From the NCBI GenBank assembly GCA_965218885.1, contig OZ244713.1, positions 3,128,638-3,192,637 on the forward strand: 64,000 nt of DNA, read 5' to 3'. The translations under genes were made by a program, and so were the position numbers. The notes beneath the pieces are model-generated. The model ran no database searches. It was given only the letters and a program-made list of their open reading frames with translations, and was not told where the DNA came from. Below, piece by piece: positions 13,189-39,445 of this stretch; within the stretch, counting starts at the first letter, position 1, and every line of letters begins with the position of its first letter. This DNA is from a bacterium (GTDB lineage Bacteria > UBA8248).

Positions 13189-15519
13189 TCAAGAAATCCC
13201 ATTAACACCCTTCGCCGCTTTTTCCTCGATGCGTTCAAGGATATCCGCAGCCACTTCGAGCACTTCCGCCGGTGCGCGGACCGCCTCACCGGCATATTGA
13301 CGCAGAGCGACTATAAGTGGCGCCAGCGCGCTGGATTTTTCCTCGTCGCTCGTGAGAATTTCGACAAGTTCATTCGCCGATGCGCCTGATGTGACTAAAT
13401 CCGGCGCAACCCACAGCATCTCTTGCATCATTTTATCGTTATCGGGCCTAAATACGTCATACGCTGAGGTGAATGCGTCCATGGCGACTTGATGCTTTCC
13501 TTTTGCCAGAAACGCCATGGCTCGCGTGTACATCACTCGCCATCTAAACTTTATTTCTTCTTCTCCGGTCAAAAATGTCCCGAGTCTTCGTTCGAGTGCT
13601 TCACAAGTTTGCAAAGCTTCATCAGGACGACAAATCTTGATTTGTTTCATGCTTTTGTTGAGTAACGCTGTAGCAACCCACCACTGGATATCCGGCGCAT
13701 TGTTGTTTGCAAAACGCCTGACGACTTCTTCGTAGGTGATAATCGCCGCTTCGAAATCCCCGAGTTCTTCTAGGGCGTTTCCCTTGTGAACCAACGTCAT
13801 AACGACACATTGCTGGACTTCCGGTACGTTGCTGTCACCAAAGCGAACGACCAACTCATCGTAAGTCGCAATCGCCCCTTCGCAATCGCCAAGTTCTCTT
13901 CGCACATCCCCCTTGTAGATTAACGCGGCAGCGATCCACGACTGGATCTCAGACTCGTCACTGTCGCCAAAGCGATCAAGTATCTCGTCGCAGGCTGCAA
14001 TGGCCGTCTTGAAATCACCGAGTCCGAGATATGCGAGGACCTTCGAAAGCCACAGAAATGCCTCATCTGATTCCGATAATTCGGACGAACCCGCATTCGA
14101 CGATTCAGATGAACTTGCAGACAGAGAAGAGAGTGTCTGGTCCGCTATCTCGATGACTCTTTCGAATTCTTTTTCCTTAAGCGCAAAGTTGATTTCTTTG
14201 AGTGCTGTGTTGATTTTTTCAAGTGCTGCATGAGTTTCTTTTTTTGTTTTTATAAGGTGGTGGAGAGCACGCTCCATTCCCTCACGAAGAACCGGTGACT
14301 CCGCCGCCTCTTGCATCAGCTTATGGAACATCTCTTCCTGTTCCTTTTCGTTGTAGAACACCACCATGAAGCGGATCAGATTTTCCACAATAGCCGCCTC
14401 GTCGCGTTCCCGCCGCAGTTTGTAGTAGATGCTGTAGAGGCGTTCGGCGGCGGTGTACAGGCGCTTCCTGCCGCTCCCCTCGGCGATCACCGCGCCCCGC
14501 TCGACCAGCCGACCGAGCATGGTCGATACGGTTCGAACGTCCATACGGGCGCGCGCTGCTATCTCAGCGGTGCTCGATGGTTGCCAGAGGTCGATCGCGG
14601 CGAGATAGACGCGGCGTTCGGTCTTGGCCAAGACCTCCAGATGGCTACGAAAATACTCGGTGTGTTCGTCGATTAGCGTCACCAACTCTTCCATCAGTTG
14701 GCGCAGGGAGTGGTGTTGCGCGAACCCGGCGACGATGACGAGGAGGCGGGGGCTGCCGCCTGTCAATATCTGAAGCGGTCTGATCTCGCGCCCGCTCACT
14801 ACATCGCCACTGACTACTTCCCAAAGGCGGCGGCATTCTTCGGTGGTCAGCGGTTCCAGGCCGATGATTCGGAACAACTCGAAGAATGGTTGGTTTACGT
14901 CATCCAGACTCTCGAAACGACTGGTGGCGGAGGCGAGCAGCATTATCTGAGGTTCTGATTGCAACACCCCGCGAAGCTTCCAGCCGAAATCCGCATCCAC
15001 GCTCTCACAAAGGGCTTGTAAGTTCTCGACCATGAGTACGAGTTTACGGTCCAATCGGTCCGCCGCCGCGAGAACGGCGGCGCGGGCATGAACCTCCAGT
15101 GACTGCTCGCGCCAGCGGGTGGACAGGTCGGCGTGCGTTTCTCGTAACTCGCTTGCAAGTTCGGGATCGTGGGCGGCGCTCTCTCTGGCGAGATGGAACA
15201 GCGTTTCGAGCCAGAAGTCGGCGATGTTGAAAATCTCCTGGCTCTCTTCCATGAAACGGACCGGCAATAGGCGTCTAGCGAGTTCGTCATCGGTGCATAT
15301 TTCCGCGGCGGCTCGGGCCAGAAGCATGGTTTTTCCCCGACCGCGAGGGGCGACGACCAGGATGTGCTGGCACGAAGGTGACTCGATGTTCCCGCGCAGC
15401 ACCTCGATCACGATGCCGAATTCATGTTTTCGGACGACGAACTGCTCTATTACCTCTTCGTCGGACTGGAATGTCCCCGGATTGAACTTGCGGATCTGCC
15501 GAGTGGATAATTCGTTCAT
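13189..15519 (-). CDS. STAND-like P-loop NTPase with winged-helix and C-terminal TPR array (776 aa)
   Basis: Walker A VVAPRGRGKTMLLA and Walker B LVLMVENLQ. MarR-like wHTH (RVYLAAIDLWQPSSTAEIAARARMDVRTVSTMLGRLVERG). A TPR-like array with (GDxxxAIxxYDE) periodicity. Confidence 0.7.
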   Translation of the reverse strand: MNELSTRQIRKFNPGTFQSDEEVIEQFVVRKHEFGIVIEVLRGNIESPSCQHILVVAPRGRGKTMLLARAAAEICTDDELARRLLPVRFMEESQEIFNIADFWLETLFHLARESAAHDPELASELRETHADLSTRWREQSLEVHARAAVLAAADRLDRKLVLMVENLQALCESVDADFGWKLRGVLQSEPQIMLLASATSRFESLDDVNQPFFELFRIIGLEPLTTEECRRLWEVVSGDVVSGREIRPLQILTGGSPRLLVIVAGFAQHHSLRQLMEELVTLIDEHTEYFRSHLEVLAKTERRVYLAAIDLWQPSSTAEIAARARMDVRTVSTMLGRLVERGAVIAEGSGRKRLYTAAERLYSIYYKLRRERDEAAIVENLIRFMVVFYNEKEQEEMFHKLMQEAAESPVLREGMERALHHLIKTKKETHAALEKINTALKEINFALKEKEFERVIEIADQTLSSLSASSSESSNAGSSELSESDEAFLWLSKVLAYLGLGDFKTAIAACDEILDRFGDSDESEIQSWIAAALIYKGDVRRELGDCEGAIATYDELVVRFGDSNVPEVQQCVVMTLVHKGNALEELGDFEAAIITYEEVVRRFANNNAPDIQWWVATALLNKSMKQIKICRPDEALQTCEALERRLGTFLTGEEEIKFRWRVMYTRAMAFLAKGKHQVAMDAFTSAYDVFRPDNDKMMQEMLWVAPDLVTSGASANELVEILTSDEEKSSALAPLIVALRQYAGEAVRAPAEVLEVAADILERIEEKAAKGVNGIS

Positions 15520-27941: not shown

Positions 27942-28125
27942 TTCATGGCTCCAGCGGTTTGGTTATTTTGAGAAAACGCTTGGTTGTCTGGTTCCATGAT
28001 CCACCCCGCGGCGATTGCATGTCAACGCCCGTGGCGGAATAATGCCCCGATCCCGGTCTTTGGACTTATCCGGCGTTCGTCCATATTTACGGCGTGCGCC
28101 CCGTTTCGTCGAAGGAGTCTTGCGC

Positions 28126-29292
28126 ATGGACCTCGTCATACGCGGCGGGTACGTGGTCGATCCCTCACAGAGTCTGGAGGGGACGATGGACGTCGAAATC
28201 GCGCGCGGCCGCGTGAGGCGGATGGCTCCCCACATCGAGCCGGGGGGCAGGCGGACGCTGAACGCCAAGGGAAAAATCGTCACCCCCGGTCTGGTCGACC
28301 TCCACTGCCATTTTTATGAGGGTTTTACGCACTACGGCGTGAACCTGGAGGCCACCATGCTCTCGCGCGGCGTGACGACGGCGGTCGATACGGGCAGCGC
28401 GGGCGCGCAGACGTACCCGAGTTTTCAGGAATGGTTTCTCGATAAAGCCCGTCCTACGGTGCGCGCGTATCTCAATATCTCGGAGGGCGGGCTCCTGATC
28501 GACGGCCTGGGCGAGAACATCGACATGCGCGCGCTGCGCGTGGACAGGGCGGTGGAGTGCTACCAGGCGAACCGGAAGCACCTCATCGGCATGAAGGTTC
28601 GCCTGAGCGACGACGTGGTGGAGCGCAGCGGCATGAGGCCCCTGGACGCGGCTCTCGAGGCGGCGGAGTTCCTGAAAGTCCCGCTCATGGCGCACGTGGG
28701 CAACACGCCCTCCTCTTTGCCGAGCATTCTCAAGCGCCTCCGCCCGGGCGACGTGCTCACGCACGCGTTTCACGGCAGGCGGGAGAACATACTCGACAAG
28801 AGGGGCCGGGTGCGCCGCGCGGTGTGGGAGGCGAGGGATTCCGGCGTTCTGCTCGACGTGGCGCATGGGCGCTCGAGCTTCAGTTTCGAGATTCTGGAGC
28901 GGGCCATGGCGCAGGGCCTGATGCCGGGAAACCTGAGCACCGACCTTCATACGCACTGCATCCACGGTCCGGTGTATGATTTCCCCAGCCTCATGAGCAA
29001 GTTTCTGGCCTTGGGCTTTCCTCTCGCCGAAGTAGTCCGGCTCAGCACGCAGACGGCGGCGGAGTGGATTGGCCTGAAAGGAAAGGTGGGAACGCTCAAA
29101 AAAGGCGCCAGGGGCGACGTGGCCGTGTTCCGGATGCGGGAGGGCAGGTTCGTTTTTGAGGACTCCCTGGGGGCGCAGCGCAAGGGAAACCAGATGCTCG
29201 AGGCGACGCACGTGGTTCTGGGCGGCCGGCTGTTGAGGCCGTCGGGGGCGGGACGGCGCAGACTCACCGAAGTGGCGAGGAAGCCGGAATAA
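28126..29292 (+). CDS. Amidohydrolase-family metallohydrolase (deacylase/dihydroorotase-like)
   Basis: MDLVIRGGYVVD...GLVDLHCHF metal-binding motif. The probable start is 28126, inside the ORF-track ORF. Confidence 0.7.
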   Translation: MDLVIRGGYVVDPSQSLEGTMDVEIARGRVRRMAPHIEPGGRRTLNAKGKIVTPGLVDLHCHFYEGFTHYGVNLEATMLSRGVTTAVDTGSAGAQTYPSFQEWFLDKARPTVRAYLNISEGGLLIDGLGENIDMRALRVDRAVECYQANRKHLIGMKVRLSDDVVERSGMRPLDAALEAAEFLKVPLMAHVGNTPSSLPSILKRLRPGDVLTHAFHGRRENILDKRGRVRRAVWEARDSGVLLDVAHGRSSFSFEILERAMAQGLMPGNLSTDLHTHCIHGPVYDFPSLMSKFLALGFPLAEVVRLSTQTAAEWIGLKGKVGTLKKGARGDVAVFRMREGRFVFEDSLGAQRKGNQMLEATHVVLGGRLLRPSGAGRRRLTEVARKPE

Positions 29293-29398
29293 CCTGAAAA
29301 TTTCCGCGTCCAAGGGGTTGACTCTTATAGGCTTGCGGGATTATCTTGAGGCGCTTTTACAGAGAGATGCATTTTTTGAAATTCCAGAGGCGAGCAAG

Positions 29399-29476
29399 AT
29401 GCGGACGATGAGAAGATTTTTTGAGGGATATTGCTTTTTCGGCTTTATCACCGTCCGTCCGCGCGCCGTGATGTAA
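29399..29476 (+). CDS. Candidate Phe/Tyr-rich leader peptide [25 protein letters not shown] (25 aa)
   Basis: Five Phe and one Tyr codon in 25, clustered as FF-x-x-Y-x-FF-x-F. Located in the 314-bp leader of the DAHP synthase gene, upstream of a terminator. Confidence 0.45.
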
Positions 29477-29531
29477 CAACCGATGGCGAGCGGGCGGACA
29501 GCCCGATCGCCACGGACAAGTAGAGAAACAT

Positions 29532-29565
29532 TCGCCGTGGGACAGCCTCACGGCGATTTTTTTTG
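29532..29565 (+). terminator. Intrinsic terminator/attenuator hairpin (cgccgtg-ggacagcct-cacggcg plus 8 T) in the DAHP synthase leader
   Basis: 7-bp GC stem followed by TTTTTTTT, 40 nt before the aroG-like start. An alternative pairing partner ccgtccgcgcgccgtg lies upstream. Confidence 0.6.
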
Positions 29566-29606
29566 AGAAACAACTGAAATTCCGAGAGGGAAAAAGGAGA
29601 TTTGTT

Positions 29607-30626
29607 TTGATAATCGTGATGAAGCAGGGCGCAACGGATGATGAGATAGGGAAAGCCGTCGCAAGGATCAATGAACTCGGTTACCAGGAGCACGTCATCA
29701 AAGGGGTGGAGCGTACGGTGATCGGGGCCATCGGGGATGAACGGGGGAAATACATGCTGGAGTCGCTTGTATCGCTGAACGGAGTGGAAAGCGCGATGCC
29801 CATTCTCAAGCCCTTCAAACTGGCGAGCTCGGAGGGCAGGCCAGAGCGCAGCCAGTTGCCGATGGGCGAGGGAGTGGAAATCGGCGGTGAGCAGATCATT
29901 ATCATCGGCGGGCCGTGCTCCGTGGAGAACAGGGAGCAGATTATGGAATCCGCCGAAGTGGTACGGGCGGGCGGCGGCCACGTCCTTCGGGGCGGCGCGT
30001 ATAAGCCGCGCACCTCGCCATACAGCTTCCAGGGCATGGCGGAAGACGGCCTCAAGCTCCTTGCCGAGGCGCGCGAGAAGACGGGGCTTCCCATCCAGAC
30101 GGAGGTCATGGACTCAGAAGACATCGATGTGTGCTGCGAGTATGCGGACGTGCTGCAAATCGGCGCTCGCAACGTGCAGAACTTCTCCTTGCTGAAAAAA
30201 GTCGGCAAGACGAACAAGACCATTTTCCTGAAGCGCGGCATGTCCACGACGATAGAAGAACTCCTGATGTCGGCCGAATACATCATGAGCCAGGGGAACC
30301 CGAACGTCGTGCTGTGCGAGAGGGGAATACGCACCTTCGAGACGGCCACGCGCAACACGCTGGACATCAGCGCCGTGCCCGTGCTCAAGGAGCAGACGCA
30401 TTTGCCGATCGTGGTGGACCCGAGCCACGCGGCGGGCGCCTGGAGGTTCGTCGCGCCCCTGGCGAAGGCGGCCGTGGCGGTCGGGGCGGACGGCCTGATG
30501 CTCGAAATGCACCCTGAGCCAGAGAAGGCGATGAGCGACGGCCCGCAATCGCTCAAACCAAAGAAGTTCGCCGCCCTGGTCGAGGAGTTGAAGGTGTTCG
30601 CAGAGGCTAGCGGAAGAACGATATAG
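29607..30626 (+). CDS. aroF: 3-deoxy-7-phosphoheptulonate (DAHP) synthase, type I-beta with N-terminal regulatory domain
   Basis: N-terminal ferredoxin-like domain ([14 protein letters not shown]) plus a KDSA/DAHPS barrel ([17 protein letters not shown]). Confidence 0.9.
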
Positions 30627-30627
30627 C

Positions 30628-31497
30628 ATGTCCGTTCTTTTCGTGTTCGTGGACGGCCTGGGGGTTGCCCCGCCGGGACCGGGCAACCCGCTGTCTCGCG
30701 TGGGGGAGCCTCCGCTGGGGCTTTTGTGCGGAGGCGAGGCGCCCGGTTTCCGGCTCATCGAGGCGGACGCCCGCCTCGGCGTCGAGGGCATCCCCCAGAG
30801 CGCGACGGGCGGCACGGCCTTGTTCACGGGCGTGAATGCGCCCAAAGCGGTGGGAAGGCACCTTCAGGCCCTGCCGAATACGCAGTTGCGCCGCATCATC
30901 GCACGAAACGGACTCTTGAGGCGCGCCCGCGAGAGGGGCGCCGACATCGGATTCGCCAACGCATATACGCCTCGTTTTTTCATGCGCCGCAGAAACCGCA
31001 TCCGCTCGGTGACCACGGTGATGGCCGAGAGCGCGGGGATTCGGCTGAATCTCCTGGAGGATCTCCTCGAGGGCAGGGCCGTTTATCGCGACTACACGAA
31101 CGGGCTCATCGCCGGGCAGGGCCATGATGCGGCGAAGCTCGATGCCGAGGAGGCGGGTGAACGCCTCGGTAAGCTTGCGCGGGCGAAGGATTTGCTGCTC
31201 TATGAATTTTTCCAGACCGATCACGTCGGACATCGCGGAACCGCTGAGGATGCCTTTGAGGTTTTGGCGGATTTGAACCGGTTTTTACAGGCCGCGCTCC
31301 GGCGTATCGACCCGGATGTGGATACGTTCATTCTGAGCAGCGATCATGGCAACGTGGAGGATATGGAAACGTCCGCGCACACGACGAACCCCGTTCCCAT
31401 CCTGCTCTACGGCAAGGGTGCGGACACCTTGCTCGCTGATGCCACGAATCCGAATATCTGTCACGTAACGCCCTTGATTCTCTCCATTATTCCGTAA
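30628..31497 (+). CDS. Alkaline-phosphatase-superfamily metalloenzyme (cofactor-independent phosphoglycerate mutase/phosphopentomutase-like)
   Basis: FVFVDGLG...SSDHGN metal-binding motifs. Translationally coupled to the DAHP synthase stop. Confidence 0.5.
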   Translation: MSVLFVFVDGLGVAPPGPGNPLSRVGEPPLGLLCGGEAPGFRLIEADARLGVEGIPQSATGGTALFTGVNAPKAVGRHLQALPNTQLRRIIARNGLLRRARERGADIGFANAYTPRFFMRRRNRIRSVTTVMAESAGIRLNLLEDLLEGRAVYRDYTNGLIAGQGHDAAKLDAEEAGERLGKLARAKDLLLYEFFQTDHVGHRGTAEDAFEVLADLNRFLQAALRRIDPDVDTFILSSDHGNVEDMETSAHTTNPVPILLYGKGADTLLADATNPNICHVTPLILSIIP

Positions 31498-39229: not shown

Positions 39230-39348
39230 TTTCCCTCTTGCTCTTTAAGGGAAAGACTGTTAGTTTTATCGAAATGGCCCGGCTGGATGCTGCGCCGGGT
39301 GGAAATGACATGGTGACATAGAAATTCCCCTTTAATGTCGTCCCGTGA

Positions 39349-39373
39349 GGCGGCGAAGGAGGAAACCCGGATG
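39349..39373 (+). promoter_or_regulatory. PyrR-binding loop in the pyr leader (UCCCGUGAGGCGGCGAAGGAGG)
   Basis: Matches the PyrR anti-antiterminator consensus UCCNGNGAGGC...GAAGGA. Lies immediately 5' of a terminator and pyrR. Confidence 0.7.
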
Positions 39374-39408
39374 CTTGCCGTCCTCTCGTCTGTTCTTAGA
39401 ACTCCATG

Positions 39409-39445
39409 CCCTTTGGGCATGGAGTTTTTTTTGTTCTTTTTTGAT
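39409..39445 (+). terminator. pyr operon attenuator terminator (gaactccatgccc-ttt-gggcatggagtt plus T run)
   Basis: 12-bp perfect stem followed by TTTTTTTTGTTCTTTTTT, 35 nt before pyrR. Confidence 0.8.

Follow-up and report, generated by a model that had tools for sequence, protein, structure and literature searches.

The closest precedent for the element treated here is aroR-aroF of Corynebacterium glutamicum, in which a leader with Phe and Tyr codons precedes the operon of a 3-deoxy-D-arabino-heptulosonate 7-phosphate (DAHP) synthase. The open reading frame (ORF) of that leader is quoted with a Phe-Tyr-Phe motif, and read-through is reported to rise under Phe limitation by way of ribosome stalling (Neshat et al. 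2014, as described in PMC11802643 and PMC4046766). The present study concerns a leader at the same biosynthetic step and with the same apparent logic, located upstream of a DAHP synthase gene in a stretch of 64,000 nucleotides (nt) from a bacterium of the lineage UBA8248 in the Genome Taxonomy Database (GenBank assembly GCA_965218885.1, contig OZ244713.1, positions 3,128,638 to 3,192,637 of the forward strand). This whole stretch is referred to as the window, and all positions are counted from its first letter. Judged from its sequence and from folding models, the leader is likely a ribosome-mediated transcription attenuator that makes expression of the DAHP synthase operon depend on how much charged tRNA-Phe and, probably, tRNA-Tyr is available.

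The likeness to aroR-aroF lies in the Phe-Tyr-Phe motif as quoted in descriptions of that system, and not in a comparison of sequences or structures. C. glutamicum belongs to the Actinomycetota. The enzyme in the window is of type I-beta with a ferredoxin-like domain, and the signal would here pass through an additional hairpin on its way to the terminator (B:C, formed by two of the RNA segments that are termed Z and A to E in the 5' to 3' direction; Table 1).

Among the classical systems, pheL-pheA of Enterobacteria (also pheM-pheST; Rfam family Phe_leader) resembles the locus in its Phe-rich leader peptide, alternative hairpins, intrinsic terminator and dependence on tRNA-Phe charging. There, however, the terminal Phe branch or a synthetase is controlled rather than the common first step, the Phe codons stand in consecutive runs rather than in a Y-x-F-F-G-F core, and the RNA follows a four-segment scheme, compared to five to six segments in the window leader. 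In the his leader of Salmonella and Escherichia coli, whose own segments form the hairpins A:B, C:D and E:F (the terminator) or the shifted B:C and D:E, one ribosome position is likewise passed along a chain of segments to a distal terminator, with three hairpins set against two shifted ones. Its seven consecutive His codons lie inside the first segment, whereas the regulatory codons of the window leader fall in the loop between Z and A; the two sequences are unrelated and serve different pathways. T-box leaders of aromatic genes in Firmicutes also form a 5' terminator/antiterminator switch responsive to tRNA charging, but they bind uncharged tRNA directly and need no ORF. The T-box was considered and discarded, as its Rfam family (RF00230) was not matched in the leader or elsewhere in the window.

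Database searches returned no described family for the element. Between 29200 and 29700, no Phe_leader or other amino acid leader family of Rfam was matched at E <= 10, and the best match in this interval was an unrelated small RNA (sRNA), P13, with 29 bits against a gathering score of 70. At the gathering thresholds, the whole window yielded PyrR only. Neither the window peptide nor three peptides from Desulfobacterota matched an NCBIfam or Pfam family at E <= 10, and a literature search, which did not extend to subscription papers, retrieved no DAHP synthase leader described for Geobacter, delta-proteobacteria or Nitrospinota. The mechanism class is classical and well known, while the leader family itself is undescribed; it is conserved in Nitrospinota and has look-alikes in Desulfobacterota.

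Leader Peptide and Aromatic Codons

The leader ORF contains five Phe codons and one Tyr codon among its 25. Among 530 ATG-started ORFs of 15-40 amino acids, counted over all six frames of the window, none but this ORF and its nested start (29408) has six aromatic residues within 10 positions. Phe accounts for 20% of the leader codons, compared to about 4% in the window's long ORFs. The favoured codons of the leader are UUU and UAU, in contrast to UUC in the genome. A longer ORF that starts with TTG at 29318 contains the leader ORF as its 3' part. This start was rejected because it lies inside the promoter and because ATG 29399 is the start kept in relatives. A second Phe-rich ORF in the window (14230-14298, plus strand; MSFFFCFYKVV...) was also set aside, since it runs antisense within a gene for 776 amino acids (13189-15519, minus strand) and is a chance ORF rather than a leader.

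Orthologous leaders were collected in two ways. A scan with the DAHP synthase protein, with one genome per species, gave 80 loci, among which 22 encode an enzyme 86-99% identical to that of the window and one (L019) an enzyme 75% identical; those with a name are metagenome-assembled genomes (MAGs) of Nitrospinota. A pattern scan of metagenomes with the conserved core added seven loci, including two further divergent lineages. In total, 28 distinct orthologous leaders from Nitrospinota-type genomes and metagenomes were compared, with DAHP synthase identities down to about 58-75%.

The TTGAC -35 box, the ATG, the open frame, the aromatic cluster, the stop position and the terminator are present in all 28 leaders. 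The ATG lies 42 nt before the codon of Gly15 in the window-like leaders (type I) and in L083, and the stop codon follows this codon after 33 or 36 nt in 28/28. A purine-rich box (AGAGG, AAAGG, AGGGG or GGAGG) precedes the ATG by 7-10 nt in most orthologs and is less clear in the lineage of L019, L081 and L082. The leader frame is open in every sequence, compared to 11/28 and 21/28 for the other two frames, and its aromatic fraction is 21% as against 5.5% and 14.6%. In the peptide, Phe7 and Phe8 are not conserved, and the N-terminal half is variable (FFEG, HGDG, YCGG, YYGG, LGDG and others). The core retained in relatives is Y-x-F-F-G-F or, more generally, (Y/F)-x-F-F-G-F, which survives both TTT/TTC changes and Phe-to-Tyr replacements (GYFGF in L010 and L011). 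In addition, the leader accompanies the DAHP synthase gene in loci where the upstream sequence is different (L013, L014, L019 and L081-L086). One reservation concerns the reading of these counts: the type I sequences are closely related, and much of their apparent conservation is shared ancestry, which weighs against taking it as support for attenuation.

All features named in the preliminary description of this locus are present at the positions given there. It had placed a Phe/Tyr-clustered leader ORF at 29399-29476 within a 314-bp leader (29293-29606) of a DAHP synthase with an N-terminal regulatory domain. The ORF is present and enriched in aromatic codons over the other ORFs of the window, the extent of the leader holds, and the regulatory domain is matched by the ferredoxin-like family PF18152. 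Conservation of the small ORF and of the hairpin in orthologous leaders, which had been named as a check, was found for both in 28/28.

Terminator and Alternative RNA Pairings

The terminator stem-loop (29532-29556) has 10 base pairs (bp), seven of them G-C, with a calculated energy of -17.9 kcal/mol. Over both strands of the 64-kb window, a U8 run follows a hairpin of -17 kcal/mol or better at two sites only, namely here and in the PyrR leader at about 39.4 kb. The terminator is found in all 28 leaders with a run of 7-12 T (interrupted by one A in L001), and D:E is paired in 97% of the alignment cells. In five divergent sequences, two adjacent pairs are changed on both sides (G-C to A-U and U-A to C-G), so that the arms are effectively swapped.

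Such a hairpin could in principle be a constitutive terminator or insulator, for example against read-through from the amidohydrolase gene upstream, with the Phe-rich ORF arising simply from T-rich spacer sequence. The upstream gene has no visible terminator of its own, and T-rich DNA does yield Phe codons in one of three frames. However, a conserved promoter lies between that gene and the ORF, the leader stays with the DAHP synthase gene in loci that have other sequence upstream, and both the Tyr codon and the open frame are conserved. A constitutive terminator of -18 kcal/mol with U8 between promoter and gene would, moreover, silence an essential pathway gene. This explanation is therefore considered very improbable.

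Attenuation requires that the terminator compete with other pairings, and the leader RNA does offer alternatives. In the 5' to 3' direction, it consists of the promoter, the Shine-Dalgarno-like box, the ORF, a hairpin without U tract (29485-29511), a purine-rich spacer of 20 nt, the terminator and the AAGGAG/TTG of the DAHP synthase gene. The full leader folds better than 200/200 dinucleotide shuffles (z = -3.3), with Z:A + B:C + D:E as its minimum-energy structure. With the usual ribosome footprint of about 12-15 nt 3' of the A or P site, each leader was folded under three conditions, i.e., with the ribosome stalled with Phe14 in the A site, with the ribosome on the stop codon, and without a ribosome.

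With a stall at Phe14 and RNA up to D, the minimum-energy structure was a long A:B helix together with a C:D helix in all 27 leaders folded in this way. In the window, A:B joins 29453-29462 to 29490-29499 and 29464-29469 to 29483-29488, giving 16 bp and -31.6 kcal/mol. The A:B duplex energy exceeds that of shuffled sequences in 25/28 leaders (mean z -3.1), A:B is also the consensus structure of RNAalifold, and the CCGUCCG core of A is invariant. In L083 and L086, the helix is lengthened by different sequence. With the ribosome on the stop codon, B:C + D:E formed in nearly all leaders; the minimum-energy structure of L005 kept C:D. The B:C hairpin reaches -20.8 kcal/mol, lacks a U tract and shows covariation at its loop-closing pair (C-G, U-G or U-A). 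Without a ribosome and with RNA to the end of A, most type I leaders form Z:A. This helix consists, in the window, of GGCG 29389-29392 opposite CGCC 29464-29467 and of GCGGACG 29401-29407 opposite CGUCCGU 29452-29458. The complementarity of Z and A exceeds that of shuffles in most type I leaders, with a mean z of -1.6 over all 28.

These figures derive from per-sequence folding and duplex tests. Pair counting on a MAFFT alignment under-counts A:B and B:C. An indel in B shifts half of the sequences out of register, so that 13/25 are scored as unpaired at four columns; for this reason, the per-sequence tests were relied on.

Proposed Mechanism

From the parts described above, we infer that the ORF is translated, that ribosomes stall within it when aromatic amino acids run short, and that the outcome is passed on to the terminator. 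Transcription would begin at about 29354, and a ribosome would load at AGAGG/AUG (29386-29401) and translate the 25-codon leader. With an ample supply of Phe and Tyr, it would run over A to the UAA at 29474; B:C could then form and leave D free for E, so that the polymerase would stop at the U8 tract with a transcript of about 210 nt. Under a shortage of tRNA-Phe or tRNA-Tyr, it would instead stall with Tyr11, Phe13, Phe14 or Phe16 in its A site. Its footprint would then end at about 29441-29456, leaving all or most of A free to capture B in the 16-bp helix. C would remain single-stranded and could pair with D as it emerges, and C:D would hold back the terminator hairpin until the polymerase has cleared the U tract and moved on into the DAHP synthase gene and its downstream neighbour. 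In untranslated RNA, A would be held by Z, and the default Z:A + B:C + D:E would lead to termination. For this specific relay through Z, A, B, C, D and E, which is a model built on predicted folds, we regard the chances of its being right or wrong as evenly balanced.

Several observations weigh against the relay, most of them at the C:D step. In the window, C:D consists of CCACGG 29510-29515 with CCGUGG 29535-29540, plus U29507-A29542 and C29508-G29541 across a bulge. It thus comprises just 6-8 bp with -9.4 kcal/mol, compared to -17.9 kcal/mol for D:E, and it overlaps B:C by five bases only (UCGCC, 29507-29511). Shuffles were designed in two ways, as dinucleotide shuffles of the whole spacer from C to D and as mononucleotide shuffles of the C arm. 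With z -0.7 and p about 0.2, the window C:D does not rise above shuffled C segments, and just 4/27 relatives reached p <= 0.05. At equilibrium, A:B + D:E is favoured over A:B + C:D by about 8 kcal/mol. Furthermore, a ribosome parked on the stop codon leaves a 6-bp C:D possible with a barrier of 8.4 kcal/mol, and Z:A is unsupported in the divergent lineage.

Given the equilibrium difference, read-through must be kinetic. In the textbook trp leader, the antiterminator is likewise calculated to be much weaker than the terminator, so that read-through is kinetic there too. A path search gave a barrier to D:E formation of about 9 kcal/mol with C:D in place and about 3 kcal/mol with D free, which corresponds to a rate difference of some four orders of magnitude; C:D may thus act as a kinetic delay. 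Since the 6-bp C:D remains available with the ribosome on the stop codon, discrimination would need release of the ribosome before D is transcribed, i.e., within about 54 nt of transcription.

The strength of C:D varies between lineages, and it is weakest in that of the window. L015 has a C:D helix of 12 bp that fully overlaps B:C, and in the divergent Nitrospinota lineage, the C sequence (GCCCCG) is common to the B (GGGGGC) and D (CGGGGC) pairings. Two other routes to antitermination were tried and rejected. Direct action of A through its 3' part (CGCCGUG, 29463-29469) on E is not conserved (GCCGUUU in L012-L015). C:E as the main antiterminator would have 5 bp with mismatches in the window and, with D lying closer to E, would be kinetically implausible.

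The weak C:D step leaves room for a factor that stabilises one conformation, as would be expected if a protein- or ligand-binding RNA (a riboswitch, a T-box-like element or a TRAP/PyrR-like site) controlled the terminator and the ORF were incidental. The leader RNA is highly structured and conserved, and the PyrR attenuator in the same window implies that protein-mediated attenuation exists in the organism. In contrast, Rfam shows no T-box or aromatic-related motif, with sRNA hits at chance level only at E <= 10, and the five GAG triplets of the leader are, by eye, too irregularly spaced for a TRAP-like array. The ORF is open in all leaders with a conserved Shine-Dalgarno-like box and ATG, and its aromatic codons stay in frame through synonymous and Phe/Tyr changes. 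The leaders of other orders described below are unrelated in sequence and nevertheless F/Y/W-rich, for which an RNA-only sensor would not select. Such a sensor is accordingly judged improbable.

Ribosome-mediated attenuation remains the preferred reading, which supports the preliminary interpretation but refines its form. The latter had assigned the leader to the pheL/pheA type of stalling attenuation; conservation of the ORF, the codons and the terminator favours stalling, whereas the relay is a different one and C:D is its weak step. The GC hairpin with eight U proposed at that stage corresponds to the stem and U8 tract given here and is conserved with compensatory changes. The upstream alternative pairing segment was right insofar as alternative pairings exist, yet they form a relay of five to six segments rather than a simple antiterminator of the pheL type. 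RNA folding, which had been suggested as a check, gave a ribosome-dependent switch between A:B and B:C, but no C:D above shuffles in the lineage of the window.

Analogous Leaders in Desulfuromonadales and Syntrophales

The remaining loci of the protein scan encode an enzyme 60-66% identical to the window DAHP synthase. Most of those from Desulfuromonadales and Syntrophales carry a different F/Y/W-rich short ORF 5' of the orthologous gene, e.g., MRAISFRFFGFSFWYGFFRPSARGKGLSA or ..LTYWFGFYYFGPQVCLVLGRR, while the Bacteroidota-labelled loci and a few others are without an aromatic leader ORF. A short ORF with at least six aromatic residues in 10 positions occurs within 300 nt upstream in 50/80 loci, compared to 1/639 control pieces of 300 nt taken from the same loci. 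As in-frame UGG and UAY codons cannot stem from T-richness, they provide the strongest argument that translation of aromatic codons is selected. Likewise, without selection on aromatic codons it would be difficult to account for different aromatic leader ORFs in independent lineages.

In these loci (L024-L079), the leader ORF lies about 100-260 nt upstream of the DAHP synthase start and is followed by two tandem hairpins, with a U tract after one or both in most leaders. Complementarity exists, by eye, between GUCUGCC in the G+C-rich ORF end and GGGCAGAC, which forms the 5' arm of the first hairpin. The 3' arm of this hairpin can in turn pair with the 5' arm and the loop of the second one, at p <= 0.05 in 17/29 leaders and most clearly in L041 (-27.3 kcal/mol versus -13.2 kcal/mol for shuffles, z -5.2), which lends statistical support to the same relay in these leaders. 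These leaders therefore share with the Nitrospinota type an aromatic ORF, a G+C-rich ORF end facing the first hairpin, and tandem hairpins with cross-complementarity. They differ in that their first hairpin usually carries a U tract, giving two terminators in series, whereas B:C of Nitrospinota has none, and in that they include Trp codons, which are absent from the Nitrospinota type except in the divergent lineage. By analogy, B:C looks like the counterpart of their first terminator minus the U tract, and D:E like that of the second. The Desulfuromonadales and Syntrophales leaders themselves look like an undescribed two-terminator aromatic attenuator. Sequence similarity between the two groups is too low to establish common descent. 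When the Nitrospinota leader was turned into a covariance model, this model found no second copy in the window and just marginal hits in Syntrophales, with a marginal hit at the right place in L044 (E = 0.0085), and an Rfam search of 12 related loci returned tRNAs only and no leader family.

A feature common to both groups bears on the role of the peptide itself. In the Nitrospinota leaders, F14-G15-F16, V19, R20 and A23 are nearly invariant (F14 is replaced by Cys in L013), and Gly15 (29441-29443) is kept in 28/28 through GGC, GGT and GGG codons. The motif aromatic-(x)-Gly-aromatic also occurs in 34/40 Desulfobacterota leaders. The invariance of Gly15 is unexplained, since plain charging-dependent attenuation needs no Gly. 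Such constancy would be expected of an arrest or sensor peptide in the exit tunnel, comparable to TnaC or SecM, that senses free aromatic amino acids or stalls by itself and does not report tRNA charging. However, the conserved C-terminal V-R-(P/L)-(R/P/H)-A coincides with the invariant RNA of segment A, where V19-R20 and A23 fall in its CCGUCCG and GCC core, and RNA pairing explains their constancy. Substitutions in this part (P to L, R to P and R to H) alter the peptide but leave a predicted A:B helix in each leader, and the conservation is therefore attributed to the RNA. Moreover, stalling by an end product would have the wrong sign for a biosynthetic gene, since a stall before A leads to read-through, and six Desulfobacterota leaders lack the Gly. 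An arrest peptide in place of a charging sensor is thus as improbable as the RNA sensor considered above.

A broader reading would combine both ideas. The F-G-F...V-R-x-x-A core could be a sequence-specific module for stalling or sensing inside the ribosome, belonging to an ancient aromatic leader family that spans phyla and relays one stall through two serial hairpins; in Nitrospinota, the first hairpin would serve purely as a relay after loss of its U tract. It was drawn up because Gly15 is kept via synonymous codons and the aromatic-Gly-aromatic motif is common to so many Desulfobacterota leaders, and it is regarded as unlikely.

Organization of the Locus

The positions of all features are collected in Table 1.

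Table 1. Positions of the leader, its functional parts and the adjoining genes within the window.
Feature	Position	Strand	Description
Amidohydrolase gene	28015-29292	+	5' neighbour of the leader
Intergenic leader	29293-29606		314 bp, from the amidohydrolase gene to the DAHP synthase gene
Promoter-like site	29318-29347	+	-35 TTGACT 29318-29323, 18-nt spacer, -10 TATCTT 29342-29347
Shine-Dalgarno-like box	29386-29390	+	AGAGG, 8 nt 5' of the leader ATG
Segment Z	29389-29407	+	3' end of the Shine-Dalgarno-like box, ATG and codons 2-3; pairs with A in untranslated RNA
Leader ORF	29399-29476	+	25 codons + TAA; ATG 29399, stop TAA 29474-29476
Regulatory codons	29417-29446	+	Phe7-Phe8 29417-29422, Tyr11 29429-29431, Phe13-Phe14 29435-29440, Phe16 29444-29446
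Segment A	29453-29469	+	Last third of the leader ORF, codons 19-24; pairs with Z or B
Segment B	29483-29499	+	Pairs with A (29483-29488, 29490-29499) or C (29485-29495)
Segment C	29501-29515	+	3' arm of the B:C hairpin 29501-29511; 3' part UCGCCACGG 29507-29515 can pair with D
Segment D	29532-29541	+	Terminator 5' arm UCGCCGUGGG
Segment E	29547-29556	+	Terminator 3' arm CUCACGGCGA
U8 tract	29557-29564	+	U tract of the intrinsic terminator
Shine-Dalgarno and start of the DAHP synthase gene	29594-29609	+	AAGGAG 29594-29599, TTG start 29607
DAHP synthase gene	29607-30626	+	Regulated gene; type I-beta, N-terminal ferredoxin-like regulatory domain
Metalloenzyme superfamily gene	30628-31497	+	PF01676, 289 amino acids; second gene of the putative operon

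The promoter-like site is the sole sigma-70-like site between 28800 and 30000, and in all orthologs read by eye, TTGAC(T/G) followed after 17-18 nt by a TAnnnT-like hexamer is found in the same place. At the other end of the leader, the AAGGAG of the DAHP synthase gene is kept in the type I orthologs. This gene starts with TTG throughout the type I orthologs of Nitrospinota, whereas the divergent lineage uses ATG. Its product matches DAHP_synth_1 (PF00793), the ferredoxin-like PF18152 and NF006421 of NCBIfam (495 bits, cut-off 335), and it aligns over its full length with the DAHP synthase of Thermotoga maritima (1RZM/3PG9).

The ATG of the metalloenzyme superfamily gene lies 2 nt past the last base of the DAHP synthase stop codon. 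Cofactor-independent phosphoglycerate mutase and phosphopentomutase resemble the encoded protein only weakly, in their C-terminal part. Every Nitrospinota-type locus has this gene directly 3' of the DAHP synthase gene, and the Desulfobacterota loci lack it. The two genes would be transcribed together, and the attenuator probably regulates both.

The second strong hairpin-U8 terminator of the window belongs to a different leader. At 39325-39434 (plus strand), Rfam matches a PyrR binding site (RF00515) with 55.4 bits against a gathering score of 54, and this match overlaps a terminator of -17.7 kcal/mol with a stem at 39402-39424 and U8 from 39425. It looks like a PyrR-type pyrimidine attenuator in a Nitrospinota-like genome. 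Both strong terminators of this kind thus lie in 5' leaders, and no gene end in the window has one; in this stretch, canonical intrinsic terminators seem to be reserved for attenuation.

Implications

The understanding of attenuation as such is unchanged by this leader. Its interest lies in the enzyme and in the organisms concerned. DAHP synthase commits carbon to all three aromatic amino acids, and the leader provides a testable account of how the level of this enzyme may be controlled on top of the allostery of its ferredoxin-like domain in poorly studied and mostly uncultured lineages. These are the Nitrospinota, as several of the closest relatives are MAGs with this label, with what appears to be a sister design in Desulfuromonadales and Syntrophales. 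With this leader, the catalogue of amino acid attenuators would gain a family that Rfam, Pfam and NCBIfam do not contain, and the leader would represent a his-type relay of hairpins put to use for aromatic control. Its inclusion could improve genome annotation by marking the 25-codon ORF and the premature terminator, both of which gene callers pass over. Likewise, it would place the metalloenzyme-family gene at 30628-31497 under aromatic amino acid control, which offers a lead to the function of this gene.

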